A stretch of DNA of 64,000 nucleotides from Solirubrobacterales bacterium (GTDB lineage: Bacteria; Actinomycetota; Thermoleophilia; Solirubrobacterales; 70-9): the NCBI GenBank assembly GCA_036378275.1, contig DASUWV010000093.1:4291-68290 (forward strand). The letters run 5' to 3'. The notes beneath the pieces were generated by a model. It did not search any database, was not told the origin of the DNA, and was given only the letters and a program-made list of their open reading frames with translations. Below are positions 3,975 to 30,746 of the stretch, in pieces (position 1 is the stretch's first letter; each line of letters begins with the position of its first letter). Both the position numbers and the translations under genes were made by a program.

Positions 3975-5002
3975 CAGAGCTCGGGGTAGGGGGTGAGCAG
4001 GGCCCAGCGCTCGGGCACGCGCGAGGCCGCGTCGACGGGGAGGACCTTCAGCAGCGCCTCGGCTCCCTGCGCGGCGCGAACCTCGCGCACCGCAGCCCGC
4101 AGCCGGCGCCGGCGCGGCTCGGCGCCGCCGACCGCGAGCTCGAGCTGGTCGCGCGCCGGCGGGCCCAGGCCGACCGCGCGCAGGCGCAGCGCCGTCGCCG
4201 GGCCCGGCAGCTCTTCCAGGCGCGGGCCGAGGACGTCGCAGAGGACCCGCGGCGAGGCGCTCGGCCGCCCCAGGCCCTGCCCGACGCTCCAGCTGCCGCC
4301 GCTCGCAAGCAGCGCCCCCAGCCGCAGGCCGAGCAGCGTCCGCCCCTTCCGCTGCGGCGCCGCCAGCAGCCGGTCGACGAGCAGCTCCAGGGCGCGGTCG
4401 AGCTGACGGCCGGCGGTCCCCTCCGGCAACTCGATCTCCTCGGCCAGCTCCTCGTGCGGCGCCCGCGGCCGCAGCGGCTCCTCTTTCCCCTGGCAGAGCC
4501 GCAGCGCCCGCAGCCCGAGCGGGCCGAAGCGGTCGGCGACCTGGTCGGCGGAGAGCCGGGAGAGCGCGGGCAGCGTCTCGATCCCGAGCCGCTCGAGCGC
4601 CTCGATCAGGTCATCGGCCTCGCGCGGGGGAGCACCGAGTCGCGTCCGCAGCGCCGCCGTCGGCACCGGTCGCGGCCACTCGCCGGCGGCGATGAAGGCG
4701 GCGAAGCGGGTGCGGCCGGTGCCGATCCGCCACTCGCCTCCCGCCGCCCGCCGGGCAGCGGCGAGGACTCCGTCCTCGCCGCCGTAGAGGTCGCGCAGGC
4801 CGTCGACCGCGAAGAAAGCCTCACCGGGCTGCGCCGACTCGACCCCGGCGCCGATCTCCTCCAGCGCCCGCGCCATCGCTTCGGTCGCCTCCATCGCCGC
4901 GACAGGGTCGGAAACGTCGGTGCGCCCGGGCCGGGGCCCCCCGCCGCGACCCGGGCGCGTGAGAGTCGCCAAGCGCTTGTCGATGACGCAGGCGATCTTC
5001 AT
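3974..5002 (-). CDS. imuB: ImuB-like Y-family polymerase homolog (342 aa) lacking the usual N-terminal catalytic motif
   Basis: Y-family thumb and little-finger-like region (LSADQVADRFGPLGLRALRLCQGKEEPLRPR...). It sits directly upstream of dnaE2, and a LexA box overlaps its start codon. Confidence 0.6.
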   Translation of the reverse strand: MKIACVIDKRLATLTRPGRGGGPRPGRTDVSDPVAAMEATEAMARALEEIGAGVESAQPGEAFFAVDGLRDLYGGEDGVLAAARRAAGGEWRIGTGRTRFAAFIAAGEWPRPVPTAALRTRLGAPPREADDLIEALERLGIETLPALSRLSADQVADRFGPLGLRALRLCQGKEEPLRPRAPHEELAEEIELPEGTAGRQLDRALELLVDRLLAAPQRKGRTLLGLRLGALLASGGSWSVGQGLGRPSASPRVLCDVLGPRLEELPGPATALRLRAVGLGPPARDQLELAVGGAEPRRRRLRAAVREVRAAQGAEALLKVLPVDAASRVPERWALLTPYPEL

Positions 5003-5020
5003 ACGAACGCATGTTCGTAT
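5001..5020 (-). promoter_or_regulatory. LexA (SOS) box, CGAAC-N4-GTTCG type
   Basis: Perfect palindrome ATACGAAC-GCAT-GTTCGTAT. It overlaps the ATG (5000..5002) of the ImuB-like gene. Confidence 0.7.
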
Positions 5021-5062
5021 CCTCAGGAGGATAACGCCATAGAGATGACCGCAAGTCGGTTC

Positions 5063-5755
5063 TCAGCTGCGGGCGATCTTCGCCGCCTCGGCGCTGCCGA
5101 GGTAGGGCGTCAGCGCGAACTCGACCAGGTCGGGGAGCAGCGACTGCAGCTCCGCGGTGCGGTCGGCGAAGATGCGGCGTGAGATCAGCGAGACGATGCC
5201 GCCGACGAGGGCCTCCTCGGTGGTCGGCGAGAGGCCAGCCAGCACCTCGTCCGAACGACCCTCGCGGCCGGCTTCAAAGTAGGGCACGAGGCTCTGGATC
5301 GCGGCGTCGTAGCGCTCGATCACGACCGGCCCGGCGACCAGCGCCTCAACCATGCTGAGCCGCGCCAGGTGTGGCTCGTCGGTGAGGAACTGCAGCATCG
5401 TCGCCAGCCCCGCCCGCACCCCCGACGACCACTCCTCCTCCTGCTCGAAGGCCTCCCCCACGCGCCGGTTCAGCTCCGTCATCACGCTGTCGTAGGCGGC
5501 GACGAAGCATTCGTCCTTGCTGCTGAAGTGCTCGTAGAAGGTGCGGCGGGAAACCGCCGCGTGACGGGTGATGTGAGCGATCGTCGTGCCCGCGTAGCCG
5601 TTCTCGGCAACCGCCTCGGCGAGTCCGGCGATCAGGCGCTCGCGCTGGTTGCGGGAGACGAACTCGCGCGGGAGACCGTGCCGTCCCGGAGGAAGGCGAG
5701 CCAGCTCCGGCGGGTACTCGGGAGACTCGACAGAAGGGTTCACTGGATCTCTCAA
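5063..5755 (-). CDS. TetR/AcrR family transcriptional regulator (230 aa)
   Basis: N-terminal HTH region RERLIAGLAEAVAENGYAGTTIAHITRHAAVSRRTFYEHFSSKDECF. Confidence 0.85.
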   Translation of the reverse strand: MRDPVNPSVESPEYPPELARLPPGRHGLPREFVSRNQRERLIAGLAEAVAENGYAGTTIAHITRHAAVSRRTFYEHFSSKDECFVAAYDSVMTELNRRVGEAFEQEEEWSSGVRAGLATMLQFLTDEPHLARLSMVEALVAGPVVIERYDAAIQSLVPYFEAGREGRSDEVLAGLSPTTEEALVGGIVSLISRRIFADRTAELQSLLPDLVEFALTPYLGSAEAAKIARS

Positions 5756-5843
5756 GAGAACCGACGATACCGATTTGGACGAGCAGAGCCTGGTTTGGCT
5801 AACGGGCCAGTTTGTTTACCGCGCGCTTTGCTCATCGGATTTG

Positions 5844-6512
5844 TCACTCGGGGGAATCTGCCTTTCGGCCCGTGAACTTGCGCGCCGCCTCCGGCCCCAG
5901 GTACGGGGCCAGGGTGAACTCGACCAGTTCGGGAAGCAGTTCCTCGATCAGATCCGGTTCCTTGAGCCAGAGCCGCTGGTAGAGGATCCAGAAGACGCCG
6001 CCGATCAGCGCTTCCTCGAGCGTCTCCGGCAGCGCCTCGCCGTAAGGCGAGACATCGCGTCCAAGTTTGAACAAGGAGACGAAGGCCTGCAAGGACTCCT
6101 CGTAGTAGCGGACCGACTCGGGCCCCGCCGCCAGGGCCTCGACCATGCAGGTGCGGGAGAGCGCCGGCTCGCGAGCGACGTAGGCGAGGAAGGCGGATAG
6201 CCCGGCCTCGACCCGCCGGGGCCAGTCGTCGATCTCTCCGGCATTGGCGACAACTTGCTCTAACGCAGAAGACATCGCATATTGCTGGGCTGCTCGAAAG
6301 CAATCCTCCTTCGAGCTGAAGTTTTCGTAGAACGTGTTGCGAGCGATCCCGGCCCGCTTGACGATGTCGGCGATGGTGACCGCGCGGTAGCCCTTTTCCG
6401 AGACCTCGAGCGCAAGCCCGTGGATGATCCGGACGCGCTGGTGGTGGGCGATGAACTCGCGCGAGAGGGGCTGCCGGCCCGGAAGTGGACGCCGTGTTGA
6501 CTTTTGAGCCAC
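5844..6512 (-). CDS. TetR/AcrR family transcriptional regulator (222 aa), paralog of 5063..5755
   Basis: RVRIIHGLALEVSEKGYRAVTIADIVKRAGIARNTFYENFSSKEDCF. It has the same architecture as its neighbour. Confidence 0.85.
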   Translation of the reverse strand: MAQKSTRRPLPGRQPLSREFIAHHQRVRIIHGLALEVSEKGYRAVTIADIVKRAGIARNTFYENFSSKEDCFRAAQQYAMSSALEQVVANAGEIDDWPRRVEAGLSAFLAYVAREPALSRTCMVEALAAGPESVRYYEESLQAFVSLFKLGRDVSPYGEALPETLEEALIGGVFWILYQRLWLKEPDLIEELLPELVEFTLAPYLGPEAARKFTGRKADSPE

Positions 6513-6627
6513 GAACGAAAGAGTACCTAAGTCAGAGGAGGAAGTTATCCCACCCCGCGACCGGATACCGTTTAGGTACCGAAGGCAGACAAGCCGTTTT
6601 CTCTAAAATGCGACCGGAGCGGGGACC

Positions 6628-7218
6628 TTGATCGGAAGGCACCAACGCATCCTCCGAGGGATGCTCGAAGCAGTAGGCACACGTGGATACGAGCGAGCCA
6701 CGGTCCAGGACGCGATCGCCGCGGCCGGCATCTACCGCCAGGCCTTCTACGACTCCTTCAGGGACAAAGAGGACTGCTACCTGCAGGCGCTCGACGCCGG
6801 CTCGGCCTGGGTCGAGCTGGCGATGCGCGAAGAAGCGGCGGGTGAGACAACCTGGCGCGGCCAGCTGCGCGGCGCCCTGACCGGGCTGCTCCGCTTCCTC
6901 GACCGCGAGCCGGCGGTCGGCCGGGCGCTGCTGGTCGAAGTCCACGCCGCCGGCCCGGACGCGGTGGAAAAACGGACAGAAGCGATGGCGCGGGCTTCGG
7001 CGGCGATGGACCTGGCGCGGGCGGAAAGCGGCGGGGAGGCGCCGGAGATCTCGGCCGAGGCGGTGGTGGCCGGGATCCTCGCGGTGCTCCACAGCCGTCT
7101 CTCCGCCTCCCAGACGGATGGCTTCATGCGGCTCCTGCCGGAGTTGATGTACCTCGCCGTGCTTCCGTACTTCGGCGCCGACGCGGCGGCGACCGAGATG
7201 CGGCTCGACGACTTCTGA
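6628..7218 (+). CDS. TetR/AcrR family transcriptional regulator (196 aa)
   Basis: RILRGMLEAVGTRGYERATVQDAIAAAGIYRQAFYDSFRDKEDCY. It is divergent from the second TetR gene. Confidence 0.8.
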   Translation: MIGRHQRILRGMLEAVGTRGYERATVQDAIAAAGIYRQAFYDSFRDKEDCYLQALDAGSAWVELAMREEAAGETTWRGQLRGALTGLLRFLDREPAVGRALLVEVHAAGPDAVEKRTEAMARASAAMDLARAESGGEAPEISAEAVVAGILAVLHSRLSASQTDGFMRLLPELMYLAVLPYFGADAAATEMRLDDF

Positions 7219-7222
7219 GCTG

Positions 7223-7978
7223 TCAAACCCCCTCGCCGCCGCGACCCTCTCCGGCGGCAAAGCGGGCGGCGCCGCGGGCGGCGACCGCGAGCACCTCGCG
7301 ACCCAGCCGGCGCTCGAGCTCGAGCCCCTCGGCCAGCGGCAGACCCGCCCCCTGCAGGGCGGCGCGGCGATCGGCCAGCATCGTCTCCTGCGGGAAGGCG
7401 GCGATCCGCTCGGCCAGCTCGAGGGCCCGCTCCAGGTGGGCGCCGGGGGCGGTGACCTCGTTGACGAGCCCGATCCGCTCCGCCTCCCCCGCCTCGACCG
7501 GGCGGCCGGTGAGGATCAGGTCCAGCGCCCGCCCCATCCCCACGACCCGCGGCAGCCGCTGAGTGCCGCCATCTACGAGCGGCACCCCCCAGCGGCGCTC
7601 GAAGCAGCCGAAGACGGAGCCGGGGGTGGCGAGCCGCAGGTCGCACCAGAGCGCCAGCTCGAGGCCGCCGGCCAGGCACCAGCCGTCGATCGCAGCGATC
7701 GCCGGCTTCGACGGGGTGAGGCGGCTGACCCCGAGCGGCCCGGCGGGATCGTCGACGTCGAGATCGAGCGCCTTCAGGTCGGCGCCGGCGCAGAAGGCTT
7801 CGCCGCCGGCCCCGGTCAGGACCAGCACCCGGGCGCCCTCGTCGGCCTCGAAGCTCTCGAGGCCACGCCGCAGCCCGGCGGCGGTCGCCGCGTCGACCGC
7901 GTTACGGCGCTCCGGGCGGTCGATCGTCAACACCGCCGCTGCGCCCGCGCGCTCGTATCGCACCTCGGAGCTGCTCAT
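7223..7978 (-). CDS. Enoyl-CoA hydratase/isomerase (crotonase) family protein
   Basis: AAVLTIDRPERRNAVD, FCAGADLK and IAAIDGWCLAGGLELALWCDLR are typical crotonase-fold motifs. Confidence 0.85.
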   Translation of the reverse strand: MSSSEVRYERAGAAAVLTIDRPERRNAVDAATAAGLRRGLESFEADEGARVLVLTGAGGEAFCAGADLKALDLDVDDPAGPLGVSRLTPSKPAIAAIDGWCLAGGLELALWCDLRLATPGSVFGCFERRWGVPLVDGGTQRLPRVVGMGRALDLILTGRPVEAGEAERIGLVNEVTAPGAHLERALELAERIAAFPQETMLADRRAALQGAGLPLAEGLELERRLGREVLAVAARGAARFAAGEGRGGEGV

Positions 7979-8180
7979 CGCGCAGATCCTCCCACAGCCC
8001 CACCGCCGGACCGCCGTTGTCGCGAAGCCGGCGAGAAGGGAGCGGGCGGGCTAGTCGCCGCGCGGTGCACGGGGATCGCGGCGACGCCCGGCTCCCAGAG
8101 AGTGCGCCCCGGTCGCCGGCCCTGGGAAGAGGCAGGGATCCCAAAGCCAGCCGCAACGGTAGGGAGCGGCGCGGACAACG

Positions 8181-8208
8181 AAAAAACGACCGAGGGCGAC
8201 GCTCGGTT
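8181..8208 (-). terminator. Candidate intrinsic terminator (6-bp GC-rich stem, 7-nt loop, T6 tract) with no annotated gene upstream
   Basis: The minus strand reads ACCGAG-CGTCGCC-CTCGGT-CG-TTTTTT. A T6 run is unusual in this GC-rich DNA. Confidence 0.3.
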
Positions 8209-8435
8209 TCTGCCTCGCGCGTAGCCTTCGCGCTCAGAAGCTCGTGGCGCCACCTTCGAGGCCTGGTCCGCTTCGGCTTCCGGCGGAACCGGTCTCTCTC
8301 GGTCGCAGGGGGAACCTACGGGGCCTTCCCGTCGCTGTCCAGGGGGCCGGAAGAGGCAATTCCGCAAAACCCGGAGTAATGCTCTGTCCCCACGCGTTAA
8401 AGCTTCGCTGAGGCGCGGCGGCTACCCTCCTTTCC

Positions 8436-9353
8436 GTGCGCATCGAAGAAATCATCGCTGAGCAGAGGCCGACGTTCTCGATCGAGTTCTTCCCGCCGAA
8501 GACGCCCGAGGCGACGGCGGAGCTCTACGAGACGGCGCGGGCGCTGCGCGAGCTCGAGCCCGACTTCGTCTCCGTCACCTACGGGGCCGGCGGCTCGACC
8601 CGCGACGGAACGGTCGAGATCACTAGCGCGCTGAAGGACGAGATCGGCTTCGAGACGATGGCCCACCTCAGCTGCGTCGGCGAGACGACGGAAGGGCTGG
8701 CGACGACGCTCGACCGGATCGAGGCGGCGGGGATCGAGAACGTCTTCGCCCTGCGCGGCGACCCGCCGCGGGGGCAGGAGGACTTCGTCCAGCCCGAGGG
8801 AGGCCTCGGCAGCGCCGCGGAGCTCGCCGCCTTCATCGCGGCGGGCTGGAACTTCGGGATCGGCGGCGCCTGCTTCCCGGAGGTCCACCCGGAGGCGCCC
8901 GACCTGGAGACGGACCTGCGCTACCTGAAGACGAAGGTCGACGCCGGGGCCTCGTTCCTGATCACCCAGCTCTTCTTCGACAACCAGGTCTACTTCGACT
9001 TCGTGCGGGCGGCGCGGGCGCAGGGAATCGAGGTGCCGATCATCGCCGGTGTGATCCCGGTCGCGAGCTTCGCCCAGACGAAGCGGATCTGCGACCTCTG
9101 CGACGCGACGATCCCGCCCCGGCTGGAAGCCGCCTTCGAAGCCGCGGGCGGCGAGCCGGAGCGGGAGTTCGAGCTGGGGATCGCTTACGCCGCGCAGCAA
9201 TGCGCGGAGCTGCTGATCGCCGGCGCGCCGGGGATCCACTTCTACGCGCTCAACCGGGCGCCCGCGACGCGGGCGGTGCTGGGGGCGCTGAAAGCCTCGC
9301 GTCCGTGGGAGCGGGTCCGGGGCGACGCCGCGTCGATGCAGCGAGCCGAATAG
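8436..9353 (+). CDS. metF: Methylenetetrahydrofolate reductase
   Basis: FSIEFFPPKT, VSVTYGAGGSTR, ALRGDPP, FITQLFFD and HFYALNRA motifs. GTG start. Confidence 0.9.
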   Translation: MRIEEIIAEQRPTFSIEFFPPKTPEATAELYETARALRELEPDFVSVTYGAGGSTRDGTVEITSALKDEIGFETMAHLSCVGETTEGLATTLDRIEAAGIENVFALRGDPPRGQEDFVQPEGGLGSAAELAAFIAAGWNFGIGGACFPEVHPEAPDLETDLRYLKTKVDAGASFLITQLFFDNQVYFDFVRAARAQGIEVPIIAGVIPVASFAQTKRICDLCDATIPPRLEAAFEAAGGEPEREFELGIAYAAQQCAELLIAGAPGIHFYALNRAPATRAVLGALKASRPWERVRGDAASMQRAE

Positions 9354-9366
9354 TCTTAAAGCGCTT

Positions 9367-10179
9367 ATGGGTAAGGGAGAGCGGGAACGAGAGCGGCTTC
9401 GCCAAGAGCGGATCGAAGCCGAACAGCGCGAATCGCGAGGCGACAGCAAACGCCTGGTGCTGGCCTACGGCATCGGCGCGGTCGTGGTCGTGGCGATCGT
9501 CGTGGCGGTCATCGTCATCGCCGGCAGCGGCGGGGGCGGGGGCGGTGAAGGCGGCGACGCCCACATCAACGTCAACACCCAGATGGGGTCGACGAACGGC
9601 GTCCAGCCCGACGAACGCGAAGGCATCCCGCCGCCGCCCGCCCATGTGACGAACGTGAAACAGGCGGCGAAGGAAGCGGGCTGCAAACTCCAGCTGCACC
9701 TCAAGGACGAGGGGCACAACCACATCCCGCAGAACTCGCCGGAGCCGAAATACAAAACCAACCCGCCGACCTCCGGCGAACACGCCGAACCGCCCTTCCA
9801 GCAGGCCGACGGCGCCTACCTCGAAGAGCCGAAGCCGATCGACTTCGTCCACTCGCTGGAGCACGGGCGGATGGAGATCCAGTACGCGCCGAGCCTGCCG
9901 GAAAAGGAGCAGCTCGAACTGAAGGGCCTCTACGACACGATGTACGGGGCGACCCTGCTCTTCCCGAACAAGGAAATGCCGTTCCAGGTGGCGGCGACGA
10001 CCTGGACCAACCTGCTCGGCTGCTCCGAATACAAAGGCGCGAAGACGCTCGACGCGATCCGCGCCTTCGGCAAAGAAACCTGGGGCAAGTACGGCGGCGA
10101 GAACGTCTTCGGCTTCAAATTCACCGGCCCGACCCCGGCGGAACCCGAAGAACCGACGACGACCGCCTCGACCGAATAG
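9367..10179 (+). CDS. Membrane-anchored DUF3105-like protein
   Basis: Charged N-terminus, one TM helix (LVLAYGIGAVVVVAIVVAVIVIAG) and an extracytoplasmic domain with VHSLEHGRMEIQYAP and WTNLLGC. The family assignment is from memory. Confidence 0.5.
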   Translation: MGKGERERERLRQERIEAEQRESRGDSKRLVLAYGIGAVVVVAIVVAVIVIAGSGGGGGGEGGDAHINVNTQMGSTNGVQPDEREGIPPPPAHVTNVKQAAKEAGCKLQLHLKDEGHNHIPQNSPEPKYKTNPPTSGEHAEPPFQQADGAYLEEPKPIDFVHSLEHGRMEIQYAPSLPEKEQLELKGLYDTMYGATLLFPNKEMPFQVAATTWTNLLGCSEYKGAKTLDAIRAFGKETWGKYGGENVFGFKFTGPTPAEPEEPTTTASTE

Positions 10180-10180
10180 G

Positions 10181-11104
10181 TCAGGCCCTGTAGGCGGGGA
10201 AGAAGCCGCCGGCTTCGCGGCCGGCGCTCAGCCGCTCGTACTTCTCCCGGTCGCAGACGAGCTCGGAGGTGAGCCAGGCCTGTCGGCGGTTGGCGAAGCC
10301 GCGCTTGAACTCCTCGAGCGCGTCGCCCGCGGTGATGCCGCCGCCGAGGTTGAGCGGCAGCCCGAGCTCGGATGAGAGCTCAACGAGCCGGGCGACGACG
10401 TTCTTCATCGGGGCGCTGCGGAGGTGGTCGTCGGCGCTGCCGCTGAGGTAGTAGTGGAGGTAGCCGTCACTGACGGCGGCGATCGAGGCGGCGGCGAGGT
10501 CGCCGTCGGGGCTACGGAGGAGGACGAGCCAGGTGCGGTCGGCGGCGAGGATGCGGTCGAAGTAGGAGAGCCCGAAGAAGTAGTGCCCGGCGGCGCCGGT
10601 GCGCCGCATCGTCTGCTCGTAGACCTCGTTGAACCCGGCGCGCTGCTCGGAAGCGGTCTCACTCCCGAGCACCAACTCCAGCTCGTATCCAGCTTCGAGG
10701 TTGCGTCGGACCTGCCGGCGATCGCTAGGTCGGCTCTTCGCCGGCAGCTCAGGATCCGCAATCTGAACAACATTGCGCTCGGTCGCCCCTATCAATGGCG
10801 AAGGCCCGAGCGCGTGGCGAATGAAGACGCTGACCAGGCCCGTCCCCGAGAAGTCGATCGCGGCCGGATCGACACCAGCCGTGGAACCCACCAACCCCGG
10901 ATATCCGTAAGGGGAAACTGCATCGCGCTCGTTCGTCCCAGGTATGTCCCGGACGATCAGGGGGGCGACAAGCTCCCCTTCCTTGAACTCGATGCGCAGC
11001 GTGTGGGTGGCGCCCTCGGCGGCGAGGAACGGGCGTGAGCGGAAGAACTGGTCGTCGGCCGCCGCCTCCCCGCGGTCGGCGAGCAGCTCGGCCCTGGCGC
11101 TCAC
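10181..11104 (-). CDS. FemAB-like / GNAT-fold acyltransferase family protein
   Basis: C-terminal LHYYLSGSADDHLRSAPMKNV...EEFKRGFANR resembles FemAB/BioF2-like acetyltransferase domains. Its start overlaps the upstream GNAT gene by 4 nt. Confidence 0.45.
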   Translation of the reverse strand: MSARAELLADRGEAAADDQFFRSRPFLAAEGATHTLRIEFKEGELVAPLIVRDIPGTNERDAVSPYGYPGLVGSTAGVDPAAIDFSGTGLVSVFIRHALGPSPLIGATERNVVQIADPELPAKSRPSDRRQVRRNLEAGYELELVLGSETASEQRAGFNEVYEQTMRRTGAAGHYFFGLSYFDRILAADRTWLVLLRSPDGDLAAASIAAVSDGYLHYYLSGSADDHLRSAPMKNVVARLVELSSELGLPLNLGGGITAGDALEEFKRGFANRRQAWLTSELVCDREKYERLSAGREAGGFFPAYRA

Positions 11105-11652
11105 TCGAGCAGGTCCGCGGCGGCGGCGCGGAACTCGTCGGGGAGCACACCCCAGACCTCGCAGTCGTCCGGCGGCCCGTCGCGGCGCGCCAGGTGCGCG
11201 CGCATCGTCCCCTCGTGCTTCCAGCCGAGGCCGGCGACGGTCTTCTTAGCCACCTCGTTGCGGGCGGGGATGCGGCCGTAGACGCGGTGGGCGCCGTACT
11301 CGTCGAAGGCCTTGGCGATCGTCAGCGCCTCGGCGCGGCGGCCGACGCCCTTGCCGCGCACGTCGTCGCCGATCAGCGCCCCCAGCTCGGGGGCGGTCTG
11401 ACGGAAGAGCCCGTAGAGGGCGGTGAAGCCGACCGGCTCCTCGTAGCCCTCGACCTCGATCGCGAACTTGCGGTCCTCGCCCGAGTCGTCCATCGCCCGC
11501 CGCGTCCACGCCTCCGCCTGCGCCAGGGTGAACTCATCCCGCTGCTCCATCAGCGACTGCGTCGCCTGCGGGTTGTTGAACCAGCGGTGGACGGCGGGGG
11601 CGTCGTCCTCACGGAAGGGACGCAGCGAGACGGTGGGTCGCTCGGTGCTCAC
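11101..11652 (-). CDS. GNAT family N-acetyltransferase (RimJ/RimL-like)
   Basis: LRPFREDDAPAVHRWFNNPQ and GDDVRGKGVGRRAEALTIAKAFDEYGAHRVYGRIPARNEVAKK. Confidence 0.8.
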   Translation of the reverse strand: MSTERPTVSLRPFREDDAPAVHRWFNNPQATQSLMEQRDEFTLAQAEAWTRRAMDDSGEDRKFAIEVEGYEEPVGFTALYGLFRQTAPELGALIGDDVRGKGVGRRAEALTIAKAFDEYGAHRVYGRIPARNEVAKKTVAGLGWKHEGTMRAHLARRDGPPDDCEVWGVLPDEFRAAAADLLE

Positions 11653-11685
11653 GCGGAGAACCCTATGTGGCCTACCGCTGATCCG

Positions 11686-12015
11686 TCAGGCGAGTACCGG
11701 CGCGTCAACTCGACGTCGCTCAAGAGCTTTCAGGACAACTCGCTCTACCTCTGGCGAGGCACCGGAAACGCTTATGGCGAAGGTAACTTCCCCGGTCTTG
11801 ATTTCTTCGGCGAGGCGTGCGACGAACTCGTCTGCGAACGAATGGCTGGTGCTGAGGATCCCGGAGAAGTCAAGGGCTACTACCGTCGCGTTTCCCGCCT
11901 TTTGGACGAGATCCGTTCGCAGTTCCTGGCCGAGGGGTCGGGTCGCGAGAGTTTTACCGTGCTCTGCGAGTGCGTAGCTATACGCCATTCGCTGCCTCCT
12001 CTCGAACGGTTCCAA
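11686..12015 (-). CDS. STAS-like small protein (DUF4325-type), 109 aa
   Basis: VVALDFSGILSTSHSFADEFVARL resembles the STAS/DUF4325 core. It lies in a low-GC islet directly downstream of the GHKL ATPase gene. Confidence 0.55.
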   Translation of the reverse strand: MEPFERRQRMAYSYALAEHGKTLATRPLGQELRTDLVQKAGNATVVALDFSGILSTSHSFADEFVARLAEEIKTGEVTFAISVSGASPEVERVVLKALERRRVDAPVLA

Positions 12016-12047
12016 GTCAAACCGATATTAGAAGAACTGCCGGAGGG

Positions 12048-12911
12048 TCAAACCGAGACGAGGTCATAGGTGATCCAAGTTCCACGCCGGAACCGAGTCG
12101 CAGGAAGAACCTCTAGCTTCGGATTCTCCTGCACGGTCTGAATCCGGCAGAACCCATTGGCGGAAAGGATGTCCATCCTCCCCGCATGCAATGAAGTCGT
12201 CAAGGCTGCTTCGAAGACGGAGGAGAACCCGATTCCGCGATGAGGGTCGTTGGTCCCGCTGACGCTTTCCCTGGTCGCGTGTGCGATTGCCCAACCGTCA
12301 TCGCTCCACTCGGGATATCGCCGCCGGATGTGCTCAGGGATTCCCATACCGAGATCGCTGATGGCAATCGTCACCTGTCGCCTCGGCTCGGTTACTCGGC
12401 GAACCGCAGCGAAGGCGCCAAGCTCGTTCTCCCCATGATCGATCGCGTTGGCGCAAAGCTCTGACACCGCCATGAAGGCGGCGTGGCCGAGGGGCGAGAC
12501 GTCATGCAGCTGATATTCGAGGATCTCCCGAGTTCGTTCCGCCACCTCCTCCACGTCGAGGAACTCCTTCACGCAGGTAACCGGCATGATCGTGTCCTCT
12601 TCGGAAGGGGGTGGCAGGGCTGGATCAATGGACATCGCCTCGAAAACCTGCCTTGCCCGAGAGTCGCTTGGGGGAGTGGTCTTGACTTCTCGGCCCGCCC
12701 CTCTGTGCCACTCGATGAACATCCTTAGGCGAACCGCAAACATCGGATGAATAGGAAGCTGGAGCCGAGCGCAATCGAGCTCGATCCTGTCGGGCAGCTC
12801 ATGCGCAAGCGGAAAGTCGTCTCTCCAGCCATCGCGGGCGCCGCGCGGACCTATTTCTTTTATCCAACCCACTCGACTCACCCTAGGTAGTCGTGCGGCG
12901 TCCGCAGTCAA
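12048..12911 (-). CDS. GHKL (histidine kinase-like / RsbW-SpoIIAB-like) ATPase with an N-terminal STAS-like region, 287 aa; the start codon is uncertain
   Basis: N box ELCANAIDHG, G1 box ISDLGMGIP and G2 box HRGIGFSSV. The TTG start at 12911 is uncertain because GTG alternatives lie downstream. Hand counts give 34/60 GC in each of 12061..12120 and 12121..12180. Confidence 0.6.
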   Translation of the reverse strand: MTADAARLPRVSRVGWIKEIGPRGARDGWRDDFPLAHELPDRIELDCARLQLPIHPMFAVRLRMFIEWHRGAGREVKTTPPSDSRARQVFEAMSIDPALPPPSEEDTIMPVTCVKEFLDVEEVAERTREILEYQLHDVSPLGHAAFMAVSELCANAIDHGENELGAFAAVRRVTEPRRQVTIAISDLGMGIPEHIRRRYPEWSDDGWAIAHATRESVSGTNDPHRGIGFSSVFEAALTTSLHAGRMDILSANGFCRIQTVQENPKLEVLPATRFRRGTWITYDLVSV

Positions 12912-12912
12912 T

Positions 12913-13476
12913 TCAATCCGGAGCCAGGCCCTGCCCCGTCAGGACGAGCCAGGCGGTCTTGGCGAGGATGCGGAGGTCGAGGGCGGGGGTACGGTGGTCG
13001 ACGTACCAGACGTCGAGCTCGATCCGCTCCTCCCAGGGGATGCCGGCGCGGCCCTGGACCTGGGCCCAGCCGGTGATCCCGGGAAGGACCTCGTGGCGGC
13101 GTTTCTGACGCGGGGTGTAGTCGTCGACCTGGGCCGGGATCGTCGGGCGGGGGCCGACGATCGCCATCTCTCCGCGGAGGACGTTGACGAGGTTCGGGAT
13201 CTCGTCGAGCGAGGTGCGGCGGAGGAAGCGGCCCGGGCGAGTGACGCGGGGGTCGTCGCGGTAGACGACTTTGCCGACGCCGACGGGGTCGGAGCCCTGG
13301 ACCATGGTCCGCAGCTTCCACATCTCGAACTCGCGGCCGCCGAGGCCGACCCGCCGCTGGCGGTAGACCACCGGCCCGGGGCTGGTCAGCTTGATCGCGA
13401 TCGCGGCGACCAGGAGCAGCGGCGAGAGGACCGCGAGGGCGAGGGCGGCGACGAGGAGGTCGAAGGCGCGTGGCAT
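12913..13476 (-). CDS. Polyprenyl-phosphate sugar phosphotransferase (small WbaP/PglC-type initiating sugar transferase)
   Basis: MPRAFDLLVAALALAVLSPLLL...SPGPVVYRQRRVG...EFEMWKLRTM...DEIPNLVNVLRGEMAIVGPRP. The ORF-track N-terminal extension was trimmed to the ATG at 13476. Confidence 0.85.
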   Translation of the reverse strand: MPRAFDLLVAALALAVLSPLLLVAAIAIKLTSPGPVVYRQRRVGLGGREFEMWKLRTMVQGSDPVGVGKVVYRDDPRVTRPGRFLRRTSLDEIPNLVNVLRGEMAIVGPRPTIPAQVDDYTPRQKRRHEVLPGITGWAQVQGRAGIPWEERIELDVWYVDHRTPALDLRILAKTAWLVLTGQGLAPD

Positions 13477-29551: not shown

Positions 29552-29785
29552 TCAGCGGTCTTCTTCGGCCGGGATTAGCTCGGCTTCACGCAGCCACCGC
29601 AGGTGGTACGCGACCTGGGCCTTGGTGATTCGCACTCCGAAGTTCTCGGTCAGCTCGTCAATCAAGTCATCAGGCGCCAGCGACCGCCCGCGGTCCTGTT
29701 CGTACAGTTCCAAAATCCGAGCCCGCATCGGGGCTCGGCGGGCCTGCTCCCGTTTCAGCTTGCGGCGCTCCCCGTCCGTCGGCAT
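29552..29785 (-). CDS. Small winged-helix DNA-binding protein (77 aa from the internal ATG; the ORF extends to 29860)
   Basis: RARILELYEQDRGRSLAPDDLIDELTENFGVRITKAQVAYHLRWLREAELI is ArsR/wHTH-like. It lies in a lower-GC segment. Confidence 0.4.
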   Translation of the reverse strand: MPTDGERRKLKREQARRAPMRARILELYEQDRGRSLAPDDLIDELTENFGVRITKAQVAYHLRWLREAELIPAEEDR

Positions 29786-30076
29786 CAAGCGGCAAGGTAC
29801 CCGCGGGTTTACGGAATGTGCACTCAGTGCTGAATGAGTTTTGGCGGCGGAACCCCCCACGCAACAGAGCAGTTCCGCCGCACCTTCACTGCTCAGCCGT
29901 TCTTAGTTATGGCCTGCGGCAGTGCGTGCGTCTGCGCGAGTTTCATGCCTCCTCACCCCCTCTCCCTCCTCTGTGTGAAGCGAGCCGAGCAAGCATGGCT
30001 CATTGCTAAAAACGTCGTCAGCAATGAAGAGACTGTCCGTGCTGGACAGGGTTAAAACGTGGAGTACTCCCTAGTA

Positions 30077-30100
30077 TTTCAGTGCTCAAAAGCACTGAAA
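30077..30100. promoter_or_regulatory. Perfect 10-bp inverted repeat (TTTCAGTGCT-caaa-AGCACTGAAA), candidate operator or RBS-proximal hairpin
   Basis: It ends 10 nt upstream of the GTG at 30111. A 10-bp palindrome GGAGTACTCC lies at 30061..30070. Confidence 0.4.
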
Positions 30101-30110
30101 GGGGACAAAG

Positions 30111-30746
30111 GTGGGCAAGCAGCCGAGCGAGGAGTCAGCCGACAACGCGGAGGGGCAGCCCTGGGAACCTGACTACATCAGTGGCGAGATGGCCAAAGCG
30201 ATCGGGCACCCAACGCGTGCGCTGATCCTTGCCGAAGTGAATCGGCGCATCATGAGCCCGGCCAAGTTCGCCAAGAAGCACGACCTCGACGTTTCCCTGG
30301 TCAGCTACCACTTCCGGGTGCTGGAGAAATACGAATGCTTGGAACTGGTCGCCGTAAAACCGGTGCGCGGGGCAAACGAGCACTTCTACAAGGCGATCCG
30401 GCGCACCCTGTTCGACGGCAAGGTCTGGGACAACCTGCCCGAGACGGTGAAGAACAAAGCCAGCGGCCAGACCCTGACCCATCTGCTCGAAGCCATCGCA
30501 CAGGCGATGCTTGCGGAGACGTTTGACGAGCGCAACGACCGCGCTCTGGCCTGGGACAAGGCGACGCTTGACGAGGAGGGCTGGTCGAAGGTCGCGGCGA
30601 TCCACAAGCAGGCGATCTACGAGACGATGCATGCAGCCGAGGAAGCCCAAGCCCGGCTAGAAGTATCGGGCGATGAGGGCATTCAGGCCTCCTGGGCCTT
30701 CCTGTTCTTCAAGTCGCCGTTTGATGAGCCGGACGAGGACGCGTAG
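30111..30746 (+). CDS. ArsR-like winged-helix transcriptional regulator with a C-terminal extension (211 aa)
   Basis: IGHPTRALILAEVNRRIMSPAKFAKKHDLDVSLVSYHFRVLEKYECLELV. Confidence 0.65.
   Translation: MGKQPSEESADNAEGQPWEPDYISGEMAKAIGHPTRALILAEVNRRIMSPAKFAKKHDLDVSLVSYHFRVLEKYECLELVAVKPVRGANEHFYKAIRRTLFDGKVWDNLPETVKNKASGQTLTHLLEAIAQAMLAETFDERNDRALAWDKATLDEEGWSKVAAIHKQAIYETMHAAEEAQARLEVSGDEGIQASWAFLFFKSPFDEPDEDA

Follow-up and report, generated by a model that had tools for sequence, protein, structure and literature searches.

A mobile two-gene cassette in Solirubrobacterales, probably a minimal member of the CapK/VapK kinase and STAS protein family

The 64,000-nucleotide stretch of Solirubrobacterales DNA analysed here (GenBank assembly GCA_036378275.1, contig DASUWV010000093.1; this whole stretch is called the window in the following) contains a short islet of low GC content inside an envelope-polysaccharide locus. 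The islet consists of two genes: the first, K, encodes a predicted kinase with a GHKL domain, and the second, S, encodes a small STAS protein. These genes and their immediate neighbours are as follows.

12048..12872, minus strand: K gene, encoding a CapK/VapK-like protein of 274 amino acids, the length found in its orthologues; stop codon included, GTG start at 12872

11686..11988, minus strand: S gene, encoding a bare STAS protein of 100 amino acids, DUF4325 family, CapS/VapS-like; stop codon included, ATG start at 11988

11995..11999, minus strand: GGAGG ribosome-binding site, 6 nucleotides ahead of the S start codon, read from the sequence

12913-13476, minus strand: Bac_transf phosphoglycosyl-transferase gene, upstream of K (Pfam, 216 bits)

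11101-11652, minus strand: Acetyltransf_3 GNAT gene, downstream of S, GTG start at 11652

The segment 11686-12872 has the lowest GC content among 1257 segments of the same size in the 64 kb (0.596, against a mean of 0.698 with a standard deviation of 0.031). The deficit is concentrated in third codon positions, where the GC content (GC3) is 0.69 in K and 0.64 in S, compared with 0.94-0.96 in Bac_transf and GNAT on either side and 0.83-0.98 in the other real genes of the window; the GNAT gene beside the islet, at 0.96, is host-like. The original prediction, made from the letters of the DNA, had called the islet compositionally foreign, and its hand counts of GC prove right within one base (33/60, 34/60 and 46/60). 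It had also placed two open reading frames on the minus strand; both are present there, although their starts had been over-extended, giving 287 and 109 amino acids instead of 274 and 100. The flanking genes are all co-directional, with Bac_transf and glycosyltransferases upstream and two GNAT-fold genes downstream, and Pfam confirms the described position of the pair, wedged between a polysaccharide cluster and two GNAT-fold genes.

The foreign composition has a counterpart in the comparison with related genomes. Using the GNAT gene of the flank, which is highly conserved, as the seed of a metagenome search, we counted the 74 close relatives that also have Bac_transf. The site is empty in 66 of them, Bac_transf directly adjoining GNAT at a distance of 16-136 nucleotides; six carry a K+S insert of ~1.07-1.27 kb, and two carry another insert of ~590 nucleotides. 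Occupied sites, compared with empty ones, contain K and S and nothing else, and the two genes are gained or lost as a unit. From these counts, the K-S pair is therefore a discrete accessory insertion, and we regard the accessory and mobile nature of the cassette as close to certain. The edges of the insert are ambiguous because the hexamer TAGGGT is present at each end.

11666..12912, minus strand: accessory insert of ~1.2 kb, as defined against empty sites; exact edges ambiguous, with TAGGGT at both ends

A search seeded on K gave another impression. Every locus recovered in that way contains K by construction. It returned more than 200 relatives, and all those with a source name are Solirubrobacterales metagenome-assembled genomes (MAGs); 21 species-level genomes have the pair in the identical position, in the order Wzy, flippase, GT2, GT4, GT2, Bac_transf, K, S, GNAT, Acetyltransf_6. 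The pair thus appeared vertically conserved in close relatives, a pattern that the original prediction had set against its own reading; the 66 empty sites in the GNAT-seeded search overturn this appearance, and we rejected vertical conservation as an ascertainment bias of the K-seeded loci. This calls for caution: the search with the gene of interest suggested vertical conservation, and only the search with a flanking gene revealed the accessory status.

On a tree of the flanking genes, the occupancy of the site requires at least 14 gains or losses among 79 loci, whereas random labels need 19.4 on average and never fewer than 15. Among loci with flanks equally close to the window, the K alleles are 55-87% identical, and the ratio of nonsynonymous divergence (dN) between K+S and the flanks spans 0.56-3.96, with a Spearman correlation of 0.55. 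Such turnover is as expected if, at one fixed site, the cassette has repeatedly been gained, lost or replaced by another allele. Low GC3 recurs across nearly all K-S copies, and this turnover also explains why it never ameliorates. Both K and S are under purifying selection, with ratios of nonsynonymous to synonymous polymorphism (pN/pS) of 0.32 for K and 0.39 for S, alongside 0.24-0.49 for the flanking genes.

Several further features of this site were observed. In two loci (L023 and L041), the last ~17 nucleotides of Bac_transf, stop codon included, are duplicated after S and before the GNAT start; the direct repeats that flank the cassette in this sub-lineage may be the footprint of an insertion event. 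The Bac_transf/GNAT junction (window 11653-12912) holds other inserts in relatives (L091:640-1260, L145:2540-3160, L081:3905-4000 and L105:3865-4000) and looks like an insertion hotspot. The alternative insert of ~590 nucleotides encodes a membrane-like protein of ~195 amino acids on the reverse strand, for which Pfam and PADLOC gave no match, and further junction inserts of ~100-136 nucleotides contain inverted repeats. The GNAT gene (window 11101-11652) is unusually conserved, with an invariant stretch of 38 residues (EPVGFTALYGLFRQTAPELGALIGDDVRG.GVGRRAEA) in all aligned orthologues.

The K protein has two domains.

12567..12872, minus strand: N-terminal STAS-like domain of K, residues 1-102, with the order beta-beta-alpha-beta-alpha-beta

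12048..12566, minus strand: GHKL (Bergerat-fold) kinase/ATPase domain of K, with N box E138/N142/H146, G1 box D173/G175/G177 and G2 box R212/G213/G215

The AlphaFold2 model of K (predicted template-modelling score 0.80) matches GHKL ATPase domains, including those of GyrB and Hsp90, in Foldseek, and the best solved-structure relatives of the K-family profile are the SpoIIAB anti-sigma F kinases (E 5e-3). Residues E138, N142, H146, D173, G175, G177, G213 and G215 do not vary among 15 sequences drawn from several phyla, and the GHKL assignment of the original prediction, which had been read from these boxes, is upheld. Its proposal of a second, STAS-like domain at the N-terminus of K receives moderate support: in the AlphaFold2 secondary structure, residues 1-102 have the order given above, they align to the STAS region of CapK as described below, and Pfam STAS_2 is matched by 4 of 18 K family members. 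In the Protein Data Bank (PDB), the best profile matches of residues 1-102 are STAS proteins, individually not significant (E 0.13-0.17). Foldseek of the whole K model returned GHKL domains only and did not identify the N-terminal domain. K initiates directly with the STAS-like domain, and a helix-turn-helix (HTH) is absent.

S is a compact protein whose main feature of interest is a pair of serines.

11839..11847, minus strand: codons of S48-H49-S50 at the N-terminal end of helix alpha-2, the predicted phospho-acceptor site

S matches Pfam DUF4325 (PF14213) with 31.1 bits against a cut-off of 23, which is its sole significant Pfam match, and its AlphaFold2 model (predicted local distance difference test score 90) matches RsbS, SpoIIAA and SLC26 STAS domains at a template-modelling (TM) score of about 0.6 in Foldseek; the description of S as STAS/DUF4325-like was thus sound. 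S48 and S50 are invariant in 19 S sequences, and the modelled helix alpha-2 begins at residue 49. From the alignment and the model, S50 or S48 is the predicted phospho-acceptor. The last STAS helix spans residues 79-91 of the 100, and the protein ends ~10 residues beyond it. A solo DUF4325 paralogue, 49% identical to S and without an adjacent K, was also seen in a Solirubrobacteraceae MAG (L007/L008:8001-8315), flanked by genes for an alkyl sulfatase of the metallo-beta-lactamase fold and a peroxiredoxin.

Two characterised systems are built on such proteins, CapK-CapS and VapKSC, both described by Chambers et al. (EMBO J 2026, PMC13373217). The cue of CapK is single-stranded DNA from DNA damage or infection; CapK phosphorylates CapS, a STAS protein with a winged helix-turn-helix (wHTH) domain, on S54; the CapS dimer then falls apart, and the repression of an immune operon located downstream (Bub or CBASS, for example) is lifted (PMC13373217). 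For CapK-CapS, the same paper gives an interface predicted template-modelling score (ipTM) of 0.91. In VapKSC, the STAS-GHKL kinase VapK phosphorylates the STAS antitoxin VapS on S48, thus releasing the PIN toxin VapC, and the system gives ~100-fold protection against one phage (PMC13373217). The main text of that paper makes no mention of DUF4325 or of a two-gene form, and its datasets hold zero entries from Solirubrobacterales or other actinomycetes.

A pair on IncHI2 plasmids fits CapK/CapS exactly: it lies upstream of a multiubiquitin-ThiF-DUF6527 operon, and W68, N218, K237, K239 and S54 are at the published positions. The K-family profile matches this plasmid CapK across both the STAS and the GHKL domains (hhalign probability 97.8%, E 7e-13). 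The match begins within the N-terminal domain, at helix alpha-1, and at residue 108 of the 368-residue CapK, whose N-terminal extension is absent from the window K. N218 pairs with N142, K239 with the invariant R164 and K237 with E162, the loop alignment being unreliable. For the partner, hhalign places CapS S54 on the invariant S50 of the window S, and the S profile (A3), compared with the PDB, has Escherichia VapS (9z7o, E 3.5e-3) as its sole match below E = 0.5, with VapS S48 aligning at position 49. Because of the K-CapK profile match, the S54/S50 alignment and the S-VapS match, we place the window pair in the CapK/VapK kinase-substrate family. Homology to the CapK/VapK-CapS/VapS family is very probable on this evidence, and a relation of kinase and substrate between K and S is likely. 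As judged from its sequence, K itself combines STAS and GHKL domains, has kept its ATP site intact and is a homologue of CapK. The pair had been described as an orphan without experimentally defined relatives, which no longer holds, as it belongs to the family of CapK-CapS and VapK-VapS-VapC characterised in 2026 (PMC13373217). What is already known is the kinase/STAS family with its CapKS and VapKSC systems; what is new is the bare two-gene form, with neither an output domain nor a toxin.

The architecture of the window K is that of VapK, with STAS and GHKL domains, without an HTH and of ~280 amino acids; S, like VapS, is a small protein of the STAS type and has a conserved serine where helix alpha-2 begins, the gene order is K then S, and both systems are associated with mobile elements and defence genes. 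Unlike VapKSC, however, the window pair has no VapC/PIN gene: the indel is exactly K+S, and the next gene is Acetyltransf_3. The 100-residue S also lacks the ~23-residue C-terminal helix (VapS residues 94-116) that blocks VapC. No recurring third gene was found beside the K-S copies in other contexts. By analogy with VapC, the downstream GNAT was considered as a toxin partner. This was rejected because empty sites also have the gene, because its GC3 (0.96) is like that of the host and because its conservation exceeds that of K and S. A VapC-like group of PIN.4 domains linked to DUF4325 had been reported earlier (Matelska et al., NAR 2017, PMC5499597) and is probably the system later named VapKSC. 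There too, the DUF4325 protein is the small partner in a two- or three-gene conflict-type module, whereas the window locus has no PIN nuclease.

Like CapK-CapS, the window pair has no dedicated phosphatase; its K is homologous to CapK in both the STAS and the GHKL domain and keeps the catalytic Asn. The differences are that the window K has no N-terminal HTH, that S has no C-terminal wHTH DNA-binding domain, and that no immune operon lies downstream, where GNAT-fold genes are found instead, at empty sites too. Because the wHTH domain is absent, S is not a repressor of the CapS type.

The cassette appears to carry its own promoter.

12880..12885, minus strand: TAGGGT, a -10-like hexamer (TANNNT), 7 nucleotides upstream of the K GTG; putative promoter of a leaderless K-S transcript

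11660..11665, minus strand: TAGGGT junction marker, 7 nucleotides upstream of the GNAT GTG (11652); in the flank, outside the cassette, and also at empty sites

In 35 of 48 distinct loci, a TANNNT hexamer stands 6-8 nucleotides ahead of the K start codon, compared with 0.4% of random positions. The actinobacterial -10 element that drives leaderless mRNA shows this TANNNT-N6-8-start geometry, and we infer that TAGGGT-N7-GTG is the promoter of a leaderless K-S mRNA. The GNAT gene shows the same TAGGGT-N7-GTG signature at empty and occupied sites alike. A target-site duplication was considered for the two TAGGGT copies and rejected, as empty sites also have the hexamer, and K copies in unrelated contexts are preceded by it too, 6-8 nucleotides from the start codon; because it always lies at this distance, a -10 element of leaderless transcripts is preferred. 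A simple scan with the sigma-70 consensus returned no promoters, and terminators at chance level only. The 59-nucleotide spacer between K and S (window 12000-12047 region) was seen to hold the hexamers TAATAT and TTGACT, and the corresponding region of CapKS has a separate promoter for capS that CapS regulates.

Beyond this site, the adjacency of K and S is kept in ~50 loci, down to 31% identity. About 29 further K-S copies in Solirubrobacterales/Thermoleophilia lie in unrelated contexts, and their neighbours almost never recur; some of these are a TrwC relaxase with an integrase, a Mutator-family transposase with a PIN gene, and a Gp49/HTH toxin-antitoxin pair. Distant K homologues of ~286-350 amino acids with the same two-domain layout are found in Bacteroidota, Ignavibacteriota, Chloroflexota and a Sphingomonas MAG. 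In 10 of 12 such loci from other phyla, a small open reading frame directly follows K on the 3' side, and all ten match DUF4325, nine of them above the threshold; the two-gene architecture is thus kept across at least five phyla. The neighbours in these phyla include the R subunit of a type I restriction system (HsdR) with an ImmA-like peptidase, an integrase, TraG, a NACHT nucleoside triphosphatase and a phage tail protein.

By tblastn, the pair is present in seven temperate Streptococcus phages, on a Janibacter plasmid and on ~30 IncHI2-type conjugative plasmids. In the Streptococcus phage inspected, K-S directly follows the lysin gene at the end of the prophage. The S partners on the IncHI2 and Janibacter plasmids carry HTH_24 or MarR domains, the Janibacter S bearing an extra MarR-type HTH. 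The published gene table of Francisella phage KIRK lists a hypothetical protein of 293 amino acids followed by a DUF4325 protein of 112 amino acids, between the CI repressor and the integrase; judged from this gene table, it is probably a bare K-S pair in a Francisella prophage. Members of the family reside on mobile elements and in surroundings that resemble defence islands; with prophages, conjugative plasmids, restriction, integrase, TraG and NACHT genes as their contexts, a horizontally acquired sensing or conflict module, one of the two possibilities named in the original prediction, is the best reading.

Some additional observations concern the family at large. A profile search for its members gave 1262 representatives at E <= 1e-3. 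Three loci on unrelated replicons, namely a Solirubrobacterales MAG, the Janibacter plasmid and the IncHI2 plasmids, have a gene for a ThiF/E1-like adenylyltransferase near K-S, at most a few kb away (L025:4170-5273, L073:2062-3561 and L072:8543-9913); in the IncHI2 plasmids it belongs to a Bub-type operon. A divergent K-S subgroup of 26-31% identity (L055-L058, ~5000-10300 each) has a recurring neighbourhood: a conserved protein of ~246 amino acids without a Pfam match is encoded upstream, and on the opposite strand are a dCTP-deaminase-like gene and genes for conserved proteins of ~250 and ~527 amino acids; two of the recurring neighbours were run through Pfam and gave no match. In addition, the N-terminal part (~73-274) of the PADLOC model PDLC02567 (DrmA) is matched by K proteins (window K 3e-3, CapK 8.5e-5, Streptococcus phage K 4.7e-6, Ignavibacteria K 3.6e-9), and S proteins match the same model further along (~315-386), which suggests that some DrmA helicases carry a fused kinase and STAS module.

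Elsewhere in the window, the second-lowest-GC patch is at 29552-30746 (~0.61). It contains two open reading frames, of 102 amino acids on the minus strand and 211 amino acids on the plus strand (GC3 0.72 and 0.83), for which Pfam gave no match, and could be a further accessory insert. At 5063-7218, three TetR-family regulator genes lie in DNA of lowered GC content (0.60-0.68). Because TetR genes hold the corresponding position in orthologous loci, this dip may be a conserved feature and not an insertion.

We propose the following explanation, which we consider somewhat better than even: the two genes of the islet form an accessory cassette that is exchanged horizontally and belongs, as a minimal member, to the CapK/VapK-CapS/VapS family; the cassette works as a stress sensor switch that acts in trans. 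A stress cue would activate K; by analogy with CapK, single-stranded DNA is a possible cue, although we put this forward only tentatively. The activated K would then phosphorylate S on Ser50 (or Ser48), and phospho-S would alter its binding partner or its oligomeric state, both steps being modelled on the homologous systems. Because the cassette encodes no DNA-binding domain and no toxin, the partner of S is placed outside the cassette; that it is encoded elsewhere and acts in trans is plausible, at a little less than even chances. Because of the contexts in which the family occurs, the role of the cassette is most likely that of a sensor switch in conflict with phages or mobile elements, not that of a regulator of the neighbouring polysaccharide genes.

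Several results weigh against this explanation. The match of K to Pfam HATPase_c (PF02518) is slightly sub-threshold (24.8 bits, E 3e-5, cut-off 26.4), as is a match to HATPase_c_2; many K orthologues do carry a precomputed PF02518 match. Only one of the two basic residues of CapK has a counterpart in K. Near the position of CapK W68/VapK F54, most relatives have a Phe in an 'F..P' motif and the window subfamily has a Leu, within a loop whose alignment is unreliable. The hhalign probability of S against CapS is weak, at 14%. Housekeeping genes, identified by eye, and not obvious defence islands, surround many of the Solirubrobacterales copies. A scan of viral contigs gave three distant relatives only, the window subfamily being absent, and PADLOC-DB v2.0.0 recognised no known defence system at the locus, the only matches being weak ones (E 3e-3 and 7e-3) to a single DrmA model, in its N-terminal part.

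It is also conceivable, although unlikely, that the bare K+S pair forms a third, self-sufficient class, either a kinase-effector toxin-antitoxin or abortive-infection module or a STAS protein that gates a host enzyme in trans. One option is a module triggered by DNA damage, in which the GHKL kinase is the effector and S is a pseudosubstrate antitoxin. In the other option, the bare STAS protein gates a conserved host enzyme, which here could be the adjacent phosphoglycosyl transferase or GNAT; if this is true, the envelope would be remodelled and a phage receptor removed once infection is sensed.

The best of the rival explanations, a self-contained toxin-antitoxin or abortive-infection pair, is likewise unlikely. 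K would be a growth-arresting effector, acting as a kinase on host or phage proteins or as an anti-sigma-like sequesterer, and S would be its pseudosubstrate or antitoxin. The closest solved kinase, SpoIIAB, acts both as a kinase and as an anti-sigma factor that sequesters its target. The indel holds K and S alone, and the two-gene unit recurs across phyla, at accessory-gene positions of prophages and on plasmids. Furthermore, the antitoxin of VapKSC is an S-like protein (PMC13373217), and the coupling of a VapC-like PIN group to DUF4325 genes (PMC5499597) suggests DUF4325 as a swappable antitoxin-like partner. In both characterised systems, however, K is the sensor and not the effector, and the frequent loss of the cassette speaks against strong addiction.

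That the pair serves specifically to regulate the envelope-polysaccharide and acyltransferase genes around it at the post-translational level, a form of the second possibility named in the original prediction, is improbable. A model for it exists in the syp locus of Vibrio fischeri, with the STAS protein SypA and the kinase/phosphatase SypE. In its favour, 21 species-level genomes have the pair at one and the same place, closely packed and in the same direction as Bac_transf on one side and the two GNAT-fold genes on the other, and a STAS domain is able to bind enzymes directly, as VapS does with VapC. It is disfavoured because ~89% of close relatives (66 of 74) keep the whole polysaccharide cluster without the pair, and the contexts of ~29 other copies in Solirubrobacterales are unrelated. 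The pair and the GNAT gene each have a promoter signature of their own; the GC3 and evolutionary rate of the pair are decoupled from those of the flanks; and unrelated inserts share the junction.

We give still less credence to a conventional partner switch of the RsbW/RsbV or SpoIIAB/SpoIIAA type, acting on an alternative sigma factor encoded elsewhere. In both, a GHKL serine kinase is paired with a STAS substrate that has a serine at the N-terminus of helix alpha-2. Apart from VapS, the best solved-structure matches are found here, with SpoIIAB the best for K by sequence and SpoIIAA and RsbS among the top structural matches of S, and the pair gives a weak match to TIGR01925 (anti-sigma F factor). 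Yet the CapK profile match is far stronger (E 7e-13) than that to SpoIIAB (E 5e-3), the extra STAS-like domain of K is absent from RsbW, and the distribution of the pair is accessory and mobile. As the original prediction had noted for the islet, no sigma factor or PP2C is linked to the pair, in any annotated locus or Pfam-checked neighbour; in locus L036, one ECF-sigma-like gene, recognised by eye only, lies two genes from K-S.

Least probable of all is a non-functional, decaying remnant of CapKS/VapKSC that lost its effector: the lack of both an output domain and a toxin, the frequent loss and the frameshifted or internally deleted copies (for example L029, L040 and P0119, several of which are MAG assemblies with possible sequencing errors) would fit it, but pN/pS of 0.32-0.39 resembles that of flanking housekeeping genes, the catalytic and phospho-site residues are invariant, the two-gene architecture is found in at least five phyla, and the promoter signature is conserved.

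In CapK-CapS and VapKSC, a kinase/STAS pair couples DNA damage to immune-gene expression or toxin release. The bare two-gene unit circulates in soil Actinomycetota, Bacteroidota, Ignavibacteriota, Chloroflexota and Streptococcus prophages, which raises the question of what a bare STAS protein holds or releases. The natural occupied and empty variants in Solirubrobacterales populations provide a ready comparison for a phenotype.

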